Part shown: piece after piece, positions 4,492-64,000 of the stretch
Layout of the letters: the number at the start of each line of letters is the position of its first letter
Numbering within the stretch: position 1 is the first letter of the stretch
Origin: a virus
DNA: 64,000 bases
IMG/VR virus record: IMGVR_UViG_3300035703_000076
Location: 4,947 to 68,946 of that record
Strand: one strand, 5' to 3'
Notes under the pieces: generated by a model
What the model was told of the DNA's origin: nothing
What the model saw: the letters and a program-made list of their open reading frames with translations, nothing else
Databases searched by the model: none
Position numbers and translations under genes: made by a program

Positions 4492-4920
4492 TTAAAAATT
4501 AAAGTTTACTTGTTCGTTTGGGTCGGGAATATACACGTTCAATTCCTCCGCCGCAAATTGTTTGATGTCTGCAAGATACTCCATAAACTGCGAAGTTGTT
4601 AGGTTTGAGGTGTGTCCTGTAATAGTTTTCACCTCCCCTGTTGTTTCATTTATCAAATCTTCTTTGACAAAGGTTTGCTTCATTAGTTCGTGTACTTGCC
4701 CGGTTGTTAATTTGTACCCAATTTGATAAAAACCATCTTTGAGGATTGGGTAAACTACTCCCCACAGATAGGCGTTTTGTTCGTTGCTTCGTTTTTTACG
4801 TTTTCTTTCGATTGTAAGAACTATTTCCTTCCCTTCAAAGGATTTTATCGCTTCGGTAATTGGCTGTCTATTAGACGAAATTAGGCCGTTAATTACTTTG
4901 GTCGGGAAGGATAGTTTCAT
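4492..4920 (-). CDS. NinB/YbcN-like recombination protein
   Basis: RS.EQNAYLWG, H..MK, TS.L...F..YL..I motifs. Confidence 0.75.
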   Translation of the reverse strand: MKLSFPTKVINGLISSNRQPITEAIKSFEGKEIVLTIERKRKKRSNEQNAYLWGVVYPILKDGFYQIGYKLTTGQVHELMKQTFVKEDLINETTGEVKTITGHTSNLTTSQFMEYLADIKQFAAEELNVYIPDPNEQVNFNF

Positions 4921-5553: not shown

Positions 5554-5865
5554 TTACTTTTCCCTGTTGTCGTATCTTACAACTGCTGCGCTTTCCCTTT
5601 CACCATCCCCTAATTCAGCATCAACGGCATTTTGCAATTCTTTGATAAACTCGTTCGGCTTGGCTAATTCAAAGCCTGTTATCTCGTGGCTTGCTGCGTA
5701 CCTTGCCCCTGTAATATCATCGACGTAGCCTTCATTGGTTGAAACTGATACTTCAAGGTCAACCACTACCGAAATGGTTATGGTGTCATCTTTTCTTTGC
5801 GGGGTTCGGCCAAATGTGGCCTGACTTGCTGCGGCAATTGCAGCCTTGATTTGTTCTGATTTCAT
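5554..5865 (-). CDS. hypothetical protein, first gene after an early promoter
   Basis: ORF about 21 nt downstream of the predicted +1. Confidence 0.7.
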   Translation of the reverse strand: MKSEQIKAAIAAASQATFGRTPQRKDDTITISVVVDLEVSVSTNEGYVDDITGARYAASHEITGFELAKPNEFIKELQNAVDAELGDGERESAAVVRYDNREK

Positions 5866-5874
5866 CGCTTAAAT

Positions 5875-5898
5875 GTTGTTATTGACTCTGCGAAAATA
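5875..5898 (-). promoter_or_regulatory. early promoter: TATTTTCG-N4-GTCAATAACAAC
   Basis: Variant Bacteroidota -7 box plus a motif shared at identical spacing with 8218-8241 and 13465-13487. Confidence 0.7.
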
Positions 5899-7953: not shown

Positions 7954-8217
7954 AGTTTCTCTTGATTTTAGTGGTTATTTCCCAAATATTCCCAAACCTT
8001 AACTAAGGATGGCCAGGCTACGTTGACAATCAAACCTGCAACGTAAACAATTGCCATCCAAGATACGGCAAGTAATAGGAATCGGCAAATGCCGTGGGTT
8101 CGGGCTTTCATGCGAAGCAAAAATTAATGGTTGATATAATGACTAATAAGCCAATAGAAAAGATAATTGCGGCAGCAAGTAGCAGCCTTTTAAGGAGGTT
8201 AGGTTTCATTGTTTTAA

Positions 8218-8241
8218 GTTGTTATTGACATTGCAAATGTA
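8218..8241 (-). promoter_or_regulatory. early promoter: TACATTTG-N4-GTCAATAACAAC
   Basis: Consensus TAnnTTTG box plus the shared leader motif. Confidence 0.75.
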
Positions 8242-8492: not shown

Positions 8493-9185
8493 TTAAAGTA
8501 AATTTTCTTGTTTGTAATAGTTTATTAGATACCACACATTTTGAGGTGTAAACTCCTTCCCATCGGTTGTTATGTAGCCGCTTCGTTTGTAGCCTAAGCG
8601 ATTAAGGTTGTAGCTAATTTCCTTTAGAAGATAGTCGGGGTTGGCGGCAATATACATTTTGATGTACTCGTATATCTGAACTTTGTTGTTATCCTCCCAT
8701 ACGGCTCTTTTCCTTGCTATTCCTCCATTAACTGCGGCTTCATAGCTTAGGTTTTCAGGTTTTCCAAGTTTCACTCCATTGGATTTCTTTACTTGCAATG
8801 CAGCCTTTGTTCGTTTGCTTATCAGTTCCCTTTCGTGCTGTGCCATCGTTGCGAAGATGCCAAGGGTTAGGGTGTTGAGGTCGGGCAAATCTAAACAAAC
8901 AAAGTTAACTGATTCCTTCAAAGTAAACAAAAAAGATACATTTCTACTTAGTCTGTCTAACTTAGCTATGAGCAAAGTTGCTTCTTTTTGTTTACATTCC
9001 TTTATAGCTTGTTCAAGTTGAGGTCGCTTGTCCTTCTTACCCGATTCAACTTCTGTAAACTCCTGCAATATACGGCCATTATTTTTGGCGTATAAGTTAA
9101 CAGCTTGCTTTTGTGCTTCCAAACCTAAGCCTGATTCGCCTTGTCGCTTTGTTGATACTCGGTAGTATGCAATGTAGGTTTTCAT
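8493..9185 (-). CDS. serine recombinase (resolvase/invertase family)
   Basis: YYRVST..Q, G.K..RP.L and KLDRLSRN catalytic motifs; ERELIS.RTK helix E. Confidence 0.92.
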   Translation of the reverse strand: MKTYIAYYRVSTKRQGESGLGLEAQKQAVNLYAKNNGRILQEFTEVESGKKDKRPQLEQAIKECKQKEATLLIAKLDRLSRNVSFLFTLKESVNFVCLDLPDLNTLTLGIFATMAQHERELISKRTKAALQVKKSNGVKLGKPENLSYEAAVNGGIARKRAVWEDNNKVQIYEYIKMYIAANPDYLLKEISYNLNRLGYKRSGYITTDGKEFTPQNVWYLINYYKQENLL

Positions 9186-13284: not shown

Positions 13285-13452
13285 TTAGTTTTTTGAAGTC
13301 AAATTTTCAAGGAAAAGAACGATGCTTAAAATGATGCTTAACAAGGTGAAAAAAGCGAAAAACTGATATTCCTTTGAAAAGGCTGAAAAACCGACAAGGA
13401 AAAGGCAAAGAAATAAGCTAATTAATAGGGGTTGGTTTGGTTGGTTGTTCAT
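13285..13452 (-). CDS. small two-TM membrane protein (about 55 aa)
   Basis: Hand translation MNNQPNQPLLISLFLCLFLVGF...; first gene after the promoter. Confidence 0.55.
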   Translation of the reverse strand: MNNQPNQPLLISLFLCLFLVGFSAFSKEYQFFAFFTLLSIILSIVLFLENLTSKN

Positions 13453-13464
13453 TGTTGTATTGTT

Positions 13465-13487
13465 TTGTTATTGACACGACAAACATA
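13465..13487 (-). promoter_or_regulatory. early promoter: TATGTTTG-N4-GTCAATAACAA
   Basis: Consensus TAnnTTTG box plus the shared leader motif. Confidence 0.75.
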
Positions 13488-14378: not shown

Positions 14379-14490
14379 AACCCCTCTTTCATTGAGGGAC
14401 AACCCCTCTTTCAATCAGGGATGCTTTCTTCAACCCCTCTTTCTTTGCGCTAAACCAATTTTCCTTCAACCCTCTTTCATTGAGGGATGC
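14379..14490. repeat. four copies of AACCC(C)TCTTTC, three followed by A(T/A)T(G/C)AGGGA
   Basis: Copies at about 14379, 14401, 14432 and 14468 in a pyrimidine-skewed intergenic region. Confidence 0.85.
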
Positions 14491-14771: not shown

Positions 14772-14834
14772 TCGGTACTATTAGTGGTATTATCGGTACT
14801 ATTAGTGGTACTTTTGGTACTATTAGGAGTACTG
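14772..14834. repeat. 3 x 21-bp iteron-like repeat (TYGGTACTATTAGKRGTA...)
   Basis: Period 21 bp at 14772, 14793 and 14814; just upstream of the RepL-like gene promoter. Confidence 0.85.
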
Positions 14835-14914: not shown

Positions 14915-15391
14915 ATGAAAGAGAGGCACGTAAAAACAACTGAAACTGTTACCAATAATTTCTCAGAAGAAACTGGGGAATTGAAGGGGAGCCATAAAGA
15001 AACAAAGAGCTATTCGATATTCGTGGAGGATAGCGAAAGCTTTGCTTATGTGTTTTCTTCGATTATAGGGGCATTAAAGAACTTGAATGGTAATGATGTA
15101 CTTCTTTTGACTTATTGTTCGTTAAACGCAGAATTTAACACCAACAGGATTACGATTAACAAGCCCATCTGTGACGAAATTTATGAGAAGCTTGGCGTTC
15201 CATATCAGTCGGTTAAGAACTCGCTTGGAAAAATGACCAAGATTGGTATCTTTCAAAGGTTGGGTTCGGGAAGTTATTTGATTAATCCCCATTACTATTG
15301 GAGGGGTAAAAGGAATGAGAGAGGTAAAGTTGCCAAAGAGTTTAGTATATCAGTAAAAATCAAACCAAATAATAATTTTGAAAATGAGTAA
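14915..15391 (+). CDS. RepL-like winged-helix replication protein
   Basis: HTH followed by G.YLINP.YYWRG, typical of RepL-type proteins; TATATTTG promoter upstream. Confidence 0.7.
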   Translation: MKERHVKTTETVTNNFSEETGELKGSHKETKSYSIFVEDSESFAYVFSSIIGALKNLNGNDVLLLTYCSLNAEFNTNRITINKPICDEIYEKLGVPYQSVKNSLGKMTKIGIFQRLGSGSYLINPHYYWRGKRNERGKVAKEFSISVKIKPNNNFENE

Positions 15392-21450: not shown

Positions 21451-21690
21451 TTGATTAAAGCTATGAACATAACTATCAAAGCCGATTCCGAGGATATAAG
21501 GATTTACGTTGATAAATTGCTTCATTTGAGGTTTCCAAGGGATAAAAACATAATTGTGCATAGTTGGATTGAAGGACACAGCAAAGCTTTCTACATTAGC
21601 CTCGATGTCAATGGAAGGAAGGAAGTTGTTATTTACGACAGCAAGGAAATGTGGGAGAAGGTGTTGAAAGTATTAGATTGTGAATTGTAA
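21451..21690 (+). CDS. hypothetical protein
   Basis: ORF. Confidence 0.6.
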   Translation: MIKAMNITIKADSEDIRIYVDKLLHLRFPRDKNIIVHSWIEGHSKAFYISLDVNGRKEVVIYDSKEMWEKVLKVLDCEL

Positions 21691-59812: not shown

Positions 59813-60031
59813 ATGTACCACTTTGACCCTACTGATTTTTCATCCGAAGACAAGTTGATGTATTTTCCACTTATCGTTAGTGTTGTTTTGAATGTTTTTC
59901 ACATTCTTCAAACGCCAGAGTTTTATCAATCTCTTTTATATGTAATTCAATTTGCTTCTGCGGCAATAAGCTTGTTTTTTGGCTTAAAAAAATTGGTTAA
60001 TTATATTATATTTCTTTTTAAGAAAAAATAA
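59813..60031 (+). CDS. putative holin/membrane protein
   Basis: Two TM segments, basic C-terminus, lysis context. Confidence 0.6.
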   Translation: MYHFDPTDFSSEDKLMYFPLIVSVVLNVFHILQTPEFYQSLLYVIQFASAAISLFFGLKKLVNYIIFLFKKK

Positions 60032-60033
60032 AA

Positions 60034-60309
60034 ATGACAACTTTTAAATTAAAGAACTTTACCAAAAACAACACTCCAAGGTGGGCTGCTCAAATTGGAA
60101 ATTCAGCACTTATAATAGGTGCTTTTTTTGCTTCTGCTGCCGCAACTGCAACTGCTATTGAGAGTTATTTTGAAGTTGTTCCTGCAAGCCTTATTGATAT
60201 ATTAGCTTACTCAAAATTAATAGGTGCTGTTGGTGGTTTGTTTTGTGGTTTTGTAAAAACTATTTCTAAGCTGTTTGGCATTCCATTAAAAGATTTAGAT
60301 TTGCAATGA
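60034..60309 (+). CDS. putative holin/membrane protein
   Basis: TP.W...IG N-terminus, two TM segments. Confidence 0.6.
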   Translation: MTTFKLKNFTKNNTPRWAAQIGNSALIIGAFFASAAATATAIESYFEVVPASLIDILAYSKLIGAVGGLFCGFVKTISKLFGIPLKDLDLQ

Positions 60310-60512
60310 AAGCGGAGGTTGACAAATACGAAGAGTCAAGGGAGTTTCCTTGGGAGATTGTGTTGAGCCAAGCCGTTCCTTTTATTGTGGAACTTTTTTC
60401 AAGAAGAAGGGCTTTAAAGAAACGCATTGAAGACCTTGAAAACCTTATAAAGGTGCAACAGTATCAAATAACAGAATTAAAGGAGCTGATAGAAAATAAA
60501 AAGCGAGATTGA
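60306..60512 (+). CDS. small membrane-associated coiled-coil protein (lysis module)
   Basis: ORF. Confidence 0.55.
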   Translation: MKAEVDKYEESREFPWEIVLSQAVPFIVELFSRRRALKKRIEDLENLIKVQQYQITELKELIENKKRD

Positions 60513-60525
60513 TTACTTTTGTTGC

Positions 60526-60933
60526 ATGAATAAAGCAACGATAACAAGAACGTATAAAAAGGACGTTACATTGGGCGAAATGAGCCTATCAAATTCCAAG
60601 GGTGAAACATTATCACTTAAAACGATTGAACTGCCTTGGAAAGAAAATAAAAGCAGAATTTCTTGCATTCCAAAGGGAACTTATTCAGTAACATTCACCC
60701 CTTCGCCAAGGCTAAAAAAGAAAACTTATAGGGTTGTGAATGTGAAAGGTCGGGATGGGATTTTATTTCACCCAGCGAATTTTTCAAGTCAACTAAAGGG
60801 TTGCATTGCTCCTTGCTTAAATCACGCCGATATTAATAATGACGGAGTTATTGATGGAACTTCAAGCAGAAATGCAACGGAAGCTTTGGAGAAATTCTTC
60901 CAAACAGAAAGTTTTGAGTTGACTATTGAATAA
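60526..60933 (+). CDS. DUF5675-family putative endolysin/peptidase
   Basis: TIELPW..N...ISCIP.G.Y, SPR, V.GR.GIL.H.AN....GCI. Confidence 0.8.
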   Translation: MNKATITRTYKKDVTLGEMSLSNSKGETLSLKTIELPWKENKSRISCIPKGTYSVTFTPSPRLKKKTYRVVNVKGRDGILFHPANFSSQLKGCIAPCLNHADINNDGVIDGTSSRNATEALEKFFQTESFELTIE

Positions 60934-60951
60934 GTTTTTTAACTTTGCGAA

Positions 60952-61039
60952 AAGTATAACCCTGTCGGTTGTTATTGACGTATCCACTTAGACAGGCTGC
61001 CCCTGAAGTTTCTTTGATTACTTTGGGGGTTTCTTTTTT
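60952..61039 (+). ncRNA. candidate sRNA of about 88 nt
   Basis: TAACTTTG box at 60940; stem CCTGTC/GACAGG enclosing GTTGTTATTGAC; terminator 61000-61039; no ORF. Confidence 0.5.
61000..61039 (+). terminator. rho-independent terminator
   Basis: CCCCTGAAGT...ACTTTGGGGG plus T tract. Confidence 0.75.
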
Positions 61040-61122
61040 GTGGAAGGGGTGGAAAAAACAAAAGCCACCGATTAAAGTGGCTCCTGTCCTGTTTACCTAA
61101 TTACCTGTGGCAAAGGTAGGGA

Positions 61123-61413
61123 TTATTTCACTTCAAATTTAACTTTCTTTCCATGTTCAAACATCGTGTTTTGCTTAAACCTACATTTGCCCGATTTTCC
61201 GTTGCAAGGTTGGTATGCAATACAGGATTTTCCGCATGCCTCGTGTTCAAATATTTCCTCTGCTGCCCTACACCAAAAATACTTGTCGTTATTTTCTGGA
61301 ACCGCTTCAAATAGTTCAATTTCGGTCAATCCTTGCTCTTTGGCATCGGTTAAATGATAGTCCAATGTGTAGCACATTTCCGATAGTTCTGTAAGAAAGT
61401 AGTATTTAGGCAT
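61123..61413 (-). CDS. Cys-rich hypothetical phage protein
   Basis: FWC...CG..C..Y.P.NG..G.CR motif. Confidence 0.75.
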   Translation of the reverse strand: MPKYYFLTELSEMCYTLDYHLTDAKEQGLTEIELFEAVPENNDKYFWCRAAEEIFEHEACGKSCIAYQPCNGKSGKCRFKQNTMFEHGKKVKFEVK

Positions 61414-63201: not shown

Positions 63202-64000
63202 CTAAATATTAAAGAATTTACAAAATTCAACGTTACCATATTGGCTCTTGGTTTTTTCGGCCATTTCCAAAATAGTGAACTTTTGTGGCTTAATTCCAGC
63301 CGATTCGATAAACGATTTTACGCCTTGCTGACAAGCGCCTGTAATCACTCGGTAAACCTCAATACATTTATCGTAGGGCAGTTTTTCGTTTACGTCCATG
63401 CCTTTAAAATCGTCCTTATTCCTTTCAGCAATTTTGTAAATCAAATCCGCCTTAGCATCCTTAATTGTGTCTCCATGTGCATATTTGCCGTTTCCATCAG
63501 TTACAAGAAAATACTCGTTTTTTTTGCCAACGTCTTTAAGTCTCCAAACATTACCTTTTTTCGATATTACCTCCGAAAATTTACCATCGGCCAAGACAAA
63601 ATCGCCATTTCCTTTGCCCCATTTCATAAATGGGATATTTTGATTTTGTAAAATTGGCAATTGTGCTTTTACTTTATCAGGTAGCGTGCAGCCTCTGAGG
63701 TAGAGAGAGCCGCCGATAGTAGTAGGTAGTACCAAGTTATCAGGTAGCGTGCAGTCTTCGAGGTAGAGATGGCCGCCGATAGTAGTAGGTAGTACCAAGT
63801 TATCAGGTAGCGTGCAGTCTTCGAGGTAGAGATAGCCGCCGATAGTAGTAGGTAGTACCAAGTTATCAGGTAGCGTGCAGCCTCTGAGGTAGAGAGAGCC
63901 GCCGATAGTAGTAGGTAGTACCAAGTTATCAGGTAGCGTGCAGCCTCTGAGGTAGAGATAGCCGCCGATAGTAGTAGGTAGTACCAAGTTATCAGGTAGC
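63202..64000 (-). CDS. LRR-like repeat protein (5' end outside the window)
   Basis: 21-aa repeats LPDNLVLPTTIGGxLYLxxCT; C-terminal AHG.T...A..DL..K / YR.ITGAC..G...F domain. Confidence 0.85.
   Translation of the reverse strand, partial: LPDNLVLPTTIGGYLYLRGCTLPDNLVLPTTIGGSLYLRGCTLPDNLVLPTTIGGYLYLEDCTLPDNLVLPTTIGGHLYLEDCTLPDNLVLPTTIGGSLYLRGCTLPDKVKAQLPILQNQNIPFMKWGKGNGDFVLADGKFSEVISKKGNVWRLKDVGKKNEYFLVTDGNGKYAHGDTIKDAKADLIYKIAERNKDDFKGMDVNEKLPYDKCIEVYRVITGACQQGVKSFIESAGIKPQKFTILEMAEKTKSQYGNVEFCKFFNI
63674..64000. repeat. 63-bp tandem repeat, at least 5 copies
   Basis: Units start at 63674, 63737, 63800, 63863, 63926 and 63989. Confidence 0.95.

Follow-up and report, generated by a model that had tools for sequence, protein, structure and literature searches.

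What does a 12-nt sequence that recurs at the 5' ends of several phage operons do in a non-coding spacer behind the last gene of the opposite strand? In the genome considered here, this sequence lies between the arms of an inverted repeat that is itself flanked by a promoter-like box and an intrinsic terminator, and an RNA read from the spacer would be complementary to the leaders of the operons in question. The arrangement is real and conserved, and an antisense mechanism is a plausible and attractive explanation of it. Such a trans-acting RNA with several targets was proposed in a first-pass annotation of the region. The layout of the locus, the complementarity, the conservation of the hairpin and its linkage to the late operon speak for that proposal, while a rival explanation, in which the repeated sequence is a protein recognition site such as a DNA operator, retains a minor share of our belief.

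The junction between the two gene blocks

The window, i.e., the whole stretch of 64,000 nt that was analysed, corresponds to bases 4947-68946 of a 68,946-bp IMG/VR virus record, and coordinates refer to the window unless the record is named. A sequence of 93 bases is repeated at both ends of the record, within a 63-bp tandem coding repeat; the record probably closes on itself, the exact join being uncertain because of the tandem repeat. Leftward genes extend from about 14392 across the record ends to 61123, and rightward genes from 14915 to 60933. The rightward block gives family matches to a RepL-like initiator, a terminase, a portal and a tail protein, and the leftward block to a RecE-like exonuclease, NinB, a DNA methyltransferase, an LPD29 domain protein and a small serine recombinase; most of the leftward proteins among those scanned are ORFans. 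It is from this gene content that we infer the label "early" for the leftward operons. Promoter-like boxes of the Bacteroidota type, TAnnTTTG, occur 55 times on the plus and 59 times on the minus strand of the 68,946 bases, and the phage appears to be an uncultured one of Bacteroidota type. We consider it to have no cultured relative because a search of the cultured-phage collection returned solely a 137-nt methyltransferase match, in 13 Flavobacterium phage records.

The spacer between the diverging blocks contains two sets of direct repeats (14380-14487 and 14772-14834), comprising four copies of a 20-nt unit (ACCCCTCTTTCATTGAGGGA-like) and four copies of a 21-nt unit (TCGGTACTATTAGTGGTA-like). 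They adjoin the gene at 14915-15391, which has a RepL-family match (4e-7), and the repeats and this gene are probably a replication origin with its initiator. A leftward spacer (576-614) holds three perfect tandem copies of a 13-nt unit, TTAACTATCCACA on the minus strand, which resembles a DnaA box; the unit is kept in one related record (G001) and was not found in another (G002).

The two blocks meet at a junction, the 189-nt gap between the rightward stop codon at 60933 and the end of the last leftward gene at 61123. The last rightward gene encodes a DUF5675 protein (family match 4.5e-24). The features of the junction are as follows:

60919-60921, plus strand: possible -33 element TTG, 18 nt upstream of the -7 box
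60940-60947, plus strand: -7 box TAACTTTG (consensus TAnnTTTG)
60952-61039, plus strand: predicted non-coding RNA, of ~88 nt if made from its own start, or else the 3' end of the late-operon message
60961-60996, plus strand: hairpin with the stem CCUGUC/GACAGG, a weak upper stem and an apical UGAC
60968-60979, plus strand: anti-leader 12-mer GTTGTTATTGAC (GUUGUUAUUGAC in RNA)
60999-61039, plus strand: intrinsic terminator recognized from its fold, with an 11-pair stem, a 10-nt loop and a U-tract
61049-61090, minus strand: intrinsic terminator of the leftward operon that ends at 61123

The box at 60940, the arms CCTGTC (60961-60966) and GACAGG (60991-60996), the 12-mer at 60968-60979 and the terminator are thus all where the first-pass annotation had put them. 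The TTG lies in the last codons of the DUF5675 gene; it is identical in all five junction sequences known to date, but it is coding there, and its spacing from the box is like that of the leftward promoter at 8218 (TTG-N18-TACATTTG). Given the 55 plus-strand boxes in 68,946 bases, only about 0.02 boxes would be expected within the 27 nt that separate the stop codon from the stem. The -7 box of Flavobacterium johnsoniae was reported to span -12 to -5 (PMC6847099), which would place the +1 of a transcript initiated at the junction box near 60952, and the terminator would set its 3' end. The arms of the terminator stem (60999-61009 and 61020-61030) are followed by TTTCTTTTTT; a simple terminator scan missed this terminator because the 10-nt loop exceeds the limit of the scan, and it becomes apparent in the fold.

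The leftward operon possesses a strong terminator of its own (fold of 61040-61125, minus strand: -27 kcal/mol, z = -3.88, 0/200 shuffles as good), and therefore the junction element belongs to the rightward unit and not to the leftward one. Located between the DUF5675 stop codon (60933) and the first terminator (60999), the element at 60961-60996 occupies the place of a 3'UTR-derived small RNA. At the same time, a promoter-like box and an intrinsic terminator bound a non-coding unit, as they do, at the level of sequence, in the case of a trans-encoded small RNA. The unit was initially described as devoid of open reading frames: a 43-aa frame with a TTG start (60969-61100) does overlap the element, but it is broken by indels in G002, and what holds is the absence of a conserved frame. 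No protein-coding gene follows the junction copy of the 12-mer on either strand, and no ATG follows it on the minus strand.

Directly before the DUF5675 gene there are three short ORFs (59813-60512; 72, 91 and 68 aa), of which the first two look, by eye, hydrophobic and membrane-spanning. The rightward operon may thus end in a lysis cassette, and the lysis genes and the candidate RNA would then have a terminator in common.

Among four runs, one low-depth metatranscriptome (X1; contigs, 7% of the sampled words) yielded 18 contigs spread over late and leftward genes. A single 180-nt contig covers 60954-61082 and continues with 51 nt unlike the window; such contigs show neither the strand, nor the ends, nor the level of a transcript, and this one, which crosses both terminators, may be DNA carry-over.

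Copies of the motif in leftward leaders

When at most one mismatch is allowed, the 12-mer has five copies in the window, all of them on the plus strand, where shuffled sequences are expected to contain 0.49 and none of 100 shuffles reaches five. The exact 12-mer is found at 5875, 8218 and 60968, and copies with one mismatch at 13464 and 21625. The copy at 21625 is irrelevant because it lies inside a plus-strand ORF in the same sense. In the full record, a further copy at base 521 is added, which makes six forward matches and no reverse ones. The 11-mer core is present in the whole record in five exact copies, all situated in spacers and in a single orientation. Apart from the junction copy, these read GTCAATAACAA on the minus strand, followed by T, C, C or A, and a start codon of the minus strand follows each of them closely. 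An RNA transcribed from the plus strand at 60968 would thus be complementary to the leaders of the corresponding messages:

5875-5898, minus strand: leader copy GTCAATAACAAC (5875-5886), -7-like box TATTTTCG (5891-5898), ATG at 5863-5865
8218-8241, minus strand: leader copy GTCAATAACAAC (8218-8229), box TACATTTG (8234-8241), ATG at 8207-8209
13464-13487, minus strand: leader copy GTCAATAACAAA (13464-13475), box TATGTTTG (13480-13487), ATG at 13450-13452
base 521 of the full record, outside the window, minus strand: fourth leader copy ATTGTTATTGAC

The boxes that precede the four leader copies are TACATTTG, TATTTTCG, TACATTTG and TATGTTTG; the motif starts 3-4 nt after the box and ends 8-11 nt before the ATG. 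With a box that spans -12 to -5, a gap of this size means that the motif begins at the predicted +1 of the leftward messages. The predicted leaders are ~20-24 nt long and are mostly filled by the motif; for F. psychrophilum, a similar length, a median 5' UTR of 24 nt, was reported (PMC9723704).

The complementarity of the loop 12-mer to the leaders at 5875 and 8218 (12/12) and at 13464 (11 nt), pointed out in the first-pass annotation, is confirmed. The accompanying remark that no other copy was noticed has to be amended, given the fourth leader copy at record base 521, outside the window, and the same-sense copy at 21625. The claim that all three early operons are addressed is too strong, since other leftward spacers have -7 boxes without the motif; a scan of the record found no degenerate copy of the motif behind any other -7 box. 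The motif is a mark of a subset of the leftward promoters, four in the record.

Among 102 initiation regions (-30 to +15), four contain 11-12 contiguous bases complementary to 60952-60998, and the next best value is 8 (3/102). The predicted duplexes of the RNA with the four leaders have computed energies of -14.0 to -18.1 kcal/mol, at an opening cost of 2.2 kcal/mol for the 12-mer in the RNA and of 0.1-0.4 kcal/mol for the leaders. A naive ranking by duplex energy (duplexfold) does not single the leaders out, placing them 5th, 7th, 9th and 12th of 102; contiguous complementarity was used in its place because that ranking is dominated by long looped pairings.

Four identical copies overlapping the +1 regions of four promoters are also what a set of protein operators would look like. 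The 11-mer may thus be the recognition site of a protein, either a DNA operator over the +1 of the four promoters or an RNA operator in the leaders, with the junction copy as a fifth site (a roadblock, a titration site or a looping anchor) and with no RNA-RNA pairing involved. The location of the motif at +1 to +12 is a classic repressor position, the complementarity to the leaders ends sharply at the motif edges with unrelated flanks beyond them, and the single DNA orientation of all copies needs no RNA explanation. The motif, however, is not palindromic, and its copies are identical rather than degenerate: the 11-mer is kept in all 17 copies in the records examined, whereas protein operators usually vary. 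A DNA-binding protein could be hidden among the leftward ORFans, but the 37 proteins scanned (of ~100 ORFs) include no repressor-like or HTH family, and the only winged-helix match is the RepL-like initiator, which stands beside its own iterons. Moreover, a pure operator at the junction would regulate nothing but a non-coding transcript because no protein gene lies downstream of it on either strand, and the conservation at the junction extends over 36 nt and not 12 (see below). On balance, we regard a protein recognition site as an unlikely explanation, albeit one to be reckoned with.

Two of the leftward genes near motif-bearing promoters deserve a separate mention. The first gene behind the fourth such promoter (63202-64000 and on to record base 510) encodes a protein of ~405 aa that consists largely of 21-aa repeats (a 63-bp period in the DNA, with 5.2 copies within the window). 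Because the 93-bp terminal repeat lies inside this 63-bp array, both the number of repeats and the "direct terminal repeat" may be effects of assembly. The gene at 8493-9185 (minus strand) encodes a small serine recombinase of the invertase/resolvase-like type (PHROG "DNA invertase", 3.9e-35), and its end adjoins, upstream, the motif-bearing promoter at 8218-8241.

Conservation and folding of the junction hairpin

Relatives of the junction were sought in several ways. A search with the DUF5675 protein gave 52 IMG/VR loci, two of which belong to the phage group, G001 (100% amino-acid identity) and G002 (90%); when 27 DUF5675 loci were read downstream, the element was common to only two of them (L007 and L008). 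A metagenome scan with a 19-mer from the loop returned four stretches, three of them real (L213 and L215, which are alike, and the distinct L216) and one due to chance (L214). A scan of IMG/VR for the -7 box followed by the motif returned at least 120 stretches, and among the matches listed 119 were chance occurrences in coding DNA and one was real (L212). A search for the hairpin with the 12-nt loop left free recovered only the two known records; taken together, the searches found no relative with a changed loop in IMG/VR or the JGI metagenomes. The portal protein alone and a 96-aa neighbour protein found two loci each; the portal homologues are six proteins, four of them 50-86% identical (one at 50%), and a portal profile matched two loci in IMG/VR and none in 185,579 species genomes, adding no further relatives.

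Five distinct junction sequences are thus known (G000, G001, G002, L213/L215 and L216), which are 87-97% identical in the vicinity of the element, and the loop with the seed is identical in all five. Among the three junctions found through the protein (G000, G001 and G002), none of the 36 columns of the hairpin varies, while 23 of the other 154 columns of the spacer do (p = 0.009); when all five junctions are taken and the hairpin columns covered by the search word are set aside, the counts are 0/17 and 43/154 (p = 0.007). Since the stem is invariant, it carries no covariation signal either way. The -7 box is TAACTTTG in G000, G001 and L216 and TACCTTTG in G002 and L213/L215, i.e., it changes at a free position only; none of the six variable columns between the stop codon and the stem falls on the six fixed bases of the box, which alone is not significant (~0.2). 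In the terminator, 3 of the 11 pairs vary on one side and all remain paired, and the loop varies freely. A DnaA box was considered for GTATCCACT in the hairpin loop; TATCCAC occurs six times in the record and is not enriched, and the idea was dropped as an explanation of the conservation.

Motif-bearing leaders number three in G001, four in G002 and one in the fragment G004. Counted over four records, there are 12 leader copies, and every one of them has the exact 11-mer; the boxes, the spacers and even the downstream genes differ around it. Position 12 is C in four, T in seven and A in one of these copies; C and T pair with the G of the loop, and A cannot. The leader copy at 5875 is kept as GTCAATAACAAT in G001 and G002, and the copy at 8218 is kept in both as well. 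At 13464, the motif is kept in both (ending in CAAT), with a different box, spacer and downstream gene, and G001 has no promoter corresponding to that at base 521. G002 retains the junction element beside the DUF5675 gene next to a different minus-strand neighbour; in G004, that neighbour gene is present at another junction, which lacks the element. Therefore, it is the end of the rightward operon, and not the minus-strand neighbour, to which the element is linked.

It is conceivable that the junction copy has no function in trans and is a relic, left by the duplication or recombination of a leftward promoter-leader module, or else a chance match, kept as a 3' stabilising hairpin or terminator region of the late message in relatives that are simply close to each other. 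The minus strand at the junction has no -7 box, yet TAAGTGGA stands in the -7 register, 3 nt before the motif, and has the appearance of a promoter in decay. The phage genomes are mosaics whose modules meet at motif-bearing promoters, and only five distinct junctions, with 87-97% identity nearby, are known. A chance occurrence of the exact 12-mer in a given 189-nt spacer is, on the other hand, very unlikely when 0.49 copies with up to one mismatch are expected in the entire 64 kb. A relic would be expected to decay at the rate of its surroundings, which the hairpin, with 0/36 variable columns against 23/154, does not do, and the plus-strand -7 box has been kept, with changes at free positions only. 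We therefore find an inert junction copy improbable, although the hairpin itself is, as a relic would have it, thermodynamically ordinary.

The latter statement derives from folding predictions. When the RNA is folded from the predicted +1 (60952) to the U-tract, the pairs of the closing stem have probabilities of 0.89-0.92. The weak upper stem of this favoured fold engages part of the 5' half of the 12-mer (unpaired probability 0.15-0.7), and the UUGAC of the 12-mer is mostly free (0.73-0.92). The minimum-energy fold of 60950-61045, in contrast, omits the closing stem and pairs part of the 12-mer otherwise. The hairpin alone is no stabler than shuffled sequences (z = -0.52; 57/200 fold as well), and the value for the 90-nt unit (z = -2.19; 5/200 shuffles as good) comes mostly from the terminator. 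Structure prediction thus allows the hairpin without singling it out, and the earlier picture of a loop that displays the 12-mer agrees in part with the RNA that runs from +1 to the U-tract, with its stem probability of ~0.9 and its partly paired 12-mer, and not with the fold of the slightly longer segment.

Proposed action and comparison with known regulators

According to the antisense explanation, the late (tail and lysis-side) transcription unit would end in a plus-strand non-coding RNA. This RNA could arise at a host-type promoter of its own (TTG-N18-TAACTTTG, with +1 near 60952), through transcription that continues past the DUF5675 gene, or in both ways, and it would stop at the terminator at 60999-61039. 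The hairpin at 60961-60996 would carry GUUGUUAUUGAC, to which the opening 11-12 nt of four leftward messages are exactly complementary; the promoters of these messages would put +1 on the G of GTCAATAACAA. Because the leaders are ~20-24 nt long and predicted to be unstructured, a duplex of 12 bp would span about -9 to -23 from the AUG and render the 5' end of the message double-stranded. It would include the A-rich stretch at -11 to -14, which aids initiation in Bacteroidota, where Shine-Dalgarno sequences are not used; such a stretch was reported to promote initiation in F. johnsoniae (PMC6847099). The outcome, whose direction we infer, would be a joint repression of the four leftward operons, through a block of translation and/or faster decay, as the late unit becomes active. 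Whether an RNA of ~88 nt, or the 3' end of the late message, pairs in the cell with the 5' ends of the four leftward messages and represses them seems to us almost evenly balanced, with doubt having the slight upper hand.

The antisense explanation would account for the transcribed non-coding setting of the fifth copy on the plus strand and for its orientation, as well as for the invariance of 36 and not 12 nt, the identity of the copies and the absence of a gene to regulate. Several observations weigh against it: the ordinary hairpin, the fold that shifts with the chosen ends, the sharp motif edges that resemble those of a protein site, the leader copy with an unpairable A at position 12, and the naive energy ranking. 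A host-type promoter that looks constitutive would, in addition, make the RNA alongside its targets, which fits a late switch poorly; the misfit is eased if read-through or accumulation dominates. The more specific proposition that an RNA sharing the late/lysis terminator serves as a master off-switch, by means of an 11-12-nt 5' tag and a hairpin anti-tag and without Hfq, is put forward more tentatively still. Lysogeny maintenance and superinfection immunity, which were initially mentioned as roles for such an RNA, receive no backing: there is no large-type integrase and no repressor among the 37 proteins scanned, and the portal profile found no prophage relatives in 185,579 species genomes.

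An analogy with the C4 RNA of phage P1 was drawn at the outset, and it holds as a concept only. The c4 RNA, said to be 77 bases in size, is cut out of the transcript that also contains its target, and it controls a single operon. In the immI region of P1 and P7, this small phage RNA, with complementary stretches that are thought to be loop-borne, was described to block translation near the ribosome-binding region (PMC12197685; PMC8546580). The candidate, predicted here from DNA, would share with c4 the complementarity to an initiation region, and its 12-mer may in part be displayed in a loop. It differs in that its element and the four targets lie on opposite strands, with 3.4 kb or more between the element and the closest target, and in that it matches the extreme 5' ends of four separate leaders. 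No homology in sequence or structure was found; the host lineage, too, is different, having no Shine-Dalgarno use and another type of promoter. A search of the whole window against Rfam at the gathering thresholds gave no matches, and a search of 60800-61200 with E up to 10 gave eight weak ones, which scored 12-19 bits where the thresholds are 36-100 and did not include any phage antisense family.

The CI RNA of satellite phage P4 is an immunity RNA that pairs with repeated short targets in phage transcripts; it is processed from the leader of the operon that it controls and causes premature termination. The candidate, unlike CI, is encoded elsewhere, and its targets are the 5' ends of separate operons. 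In phage T4, the translational repressor RegA and the endoribonuclease RegB shut off many early messages via a short sequence shared by their leaders. A coordinated post-transcriptional shut-off would be common to T4 and the phage considered here, but the T4 effectors are proteins, and the proposed effector is an RNA.

In the virulent Pseudomonas phage PAK_P3, intergenic RNAs of ~100 nt that are strongly expressed late and whose function is unknown were reported, and one of them matches an early phage gene perfectly over 11 nt (PMC4933390). These RNAs were seen by RNA-seq and the match is a single one, inside a gene; the candidate is predicted from sequence, and its match is repeated at four leaders, at a fixed position, and conserved in relatives. 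Trans-encoded and 3'UTR-derived small RNAs such as DicF and LPR1/PreS of lambda were described to have a seed of ~7-12 nt, an intrinsic terminator and several mRNA targets, bound at their initiation regions (PMC12197685; bioRxiv 10.1101/2024.10.31.621285). A seed kept in 5/5 junctions, an 11-mer kept in 12/12 leaders and complementarity to several initiation regions conform to this description; DicF and LPR1/PreS act on host genes, mostly with Hfq, and the putative targets here are the phage's own operons. To our knowledge, Hfq is generally lacking in the host lineage.

Temporal control in phages is known mostly to proceed through proteins, such as repressors, sigma and anti-sigma factors, antiterminators and RegA/RegB of T4, and the RNA cases of which we know (c4, CI, oop and sar) each act on one neighbouring operon. 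A limited search of the literature on phage small RNAs found no description of a single RNA that matches a 5' tag common to several phage operons. If the antisense explanation is true, the control of several operons by one trans-acting RNA, directed against a 5' tag that they have in common, would be a design of another and very compact kind, an RNA-tag system at the extreme 5' end of Shine-Dalgarno-less leaders of ~20 nt in a group of Bacteroidota phages. The host phylum has unusual promoters and translation initiation, and the regulation of its phages is almost unstudied. As the interaction is defined by only 12 nt on each side, it could, provided that it works, be developed into a portable multi-gene switch for Bacteroidota. 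If the protein-operator explanation is right instead, a regulon of four promoters plus a fifth site would still be defined.

Small units of comparable appearance were encountered at two other places. In L032 and L039, IMG/VR fragments of an unrelated phage, the DUF5675 gene is followed by a TATCTTTG box, ~60 nt of foldable sequence and a terminator; in these records, which are 40% and 66% complete, no 11-12-mer of the unit recurs as a set elsewhere. In the record studied here, a minus-strand spacer to the left of the window start (record bases 4633-4803) contains two TAnnTTTG boxes as well as an inverted repeat (C6...G6), and no ORF is evident in between; the spacer could be another small transcription unit.
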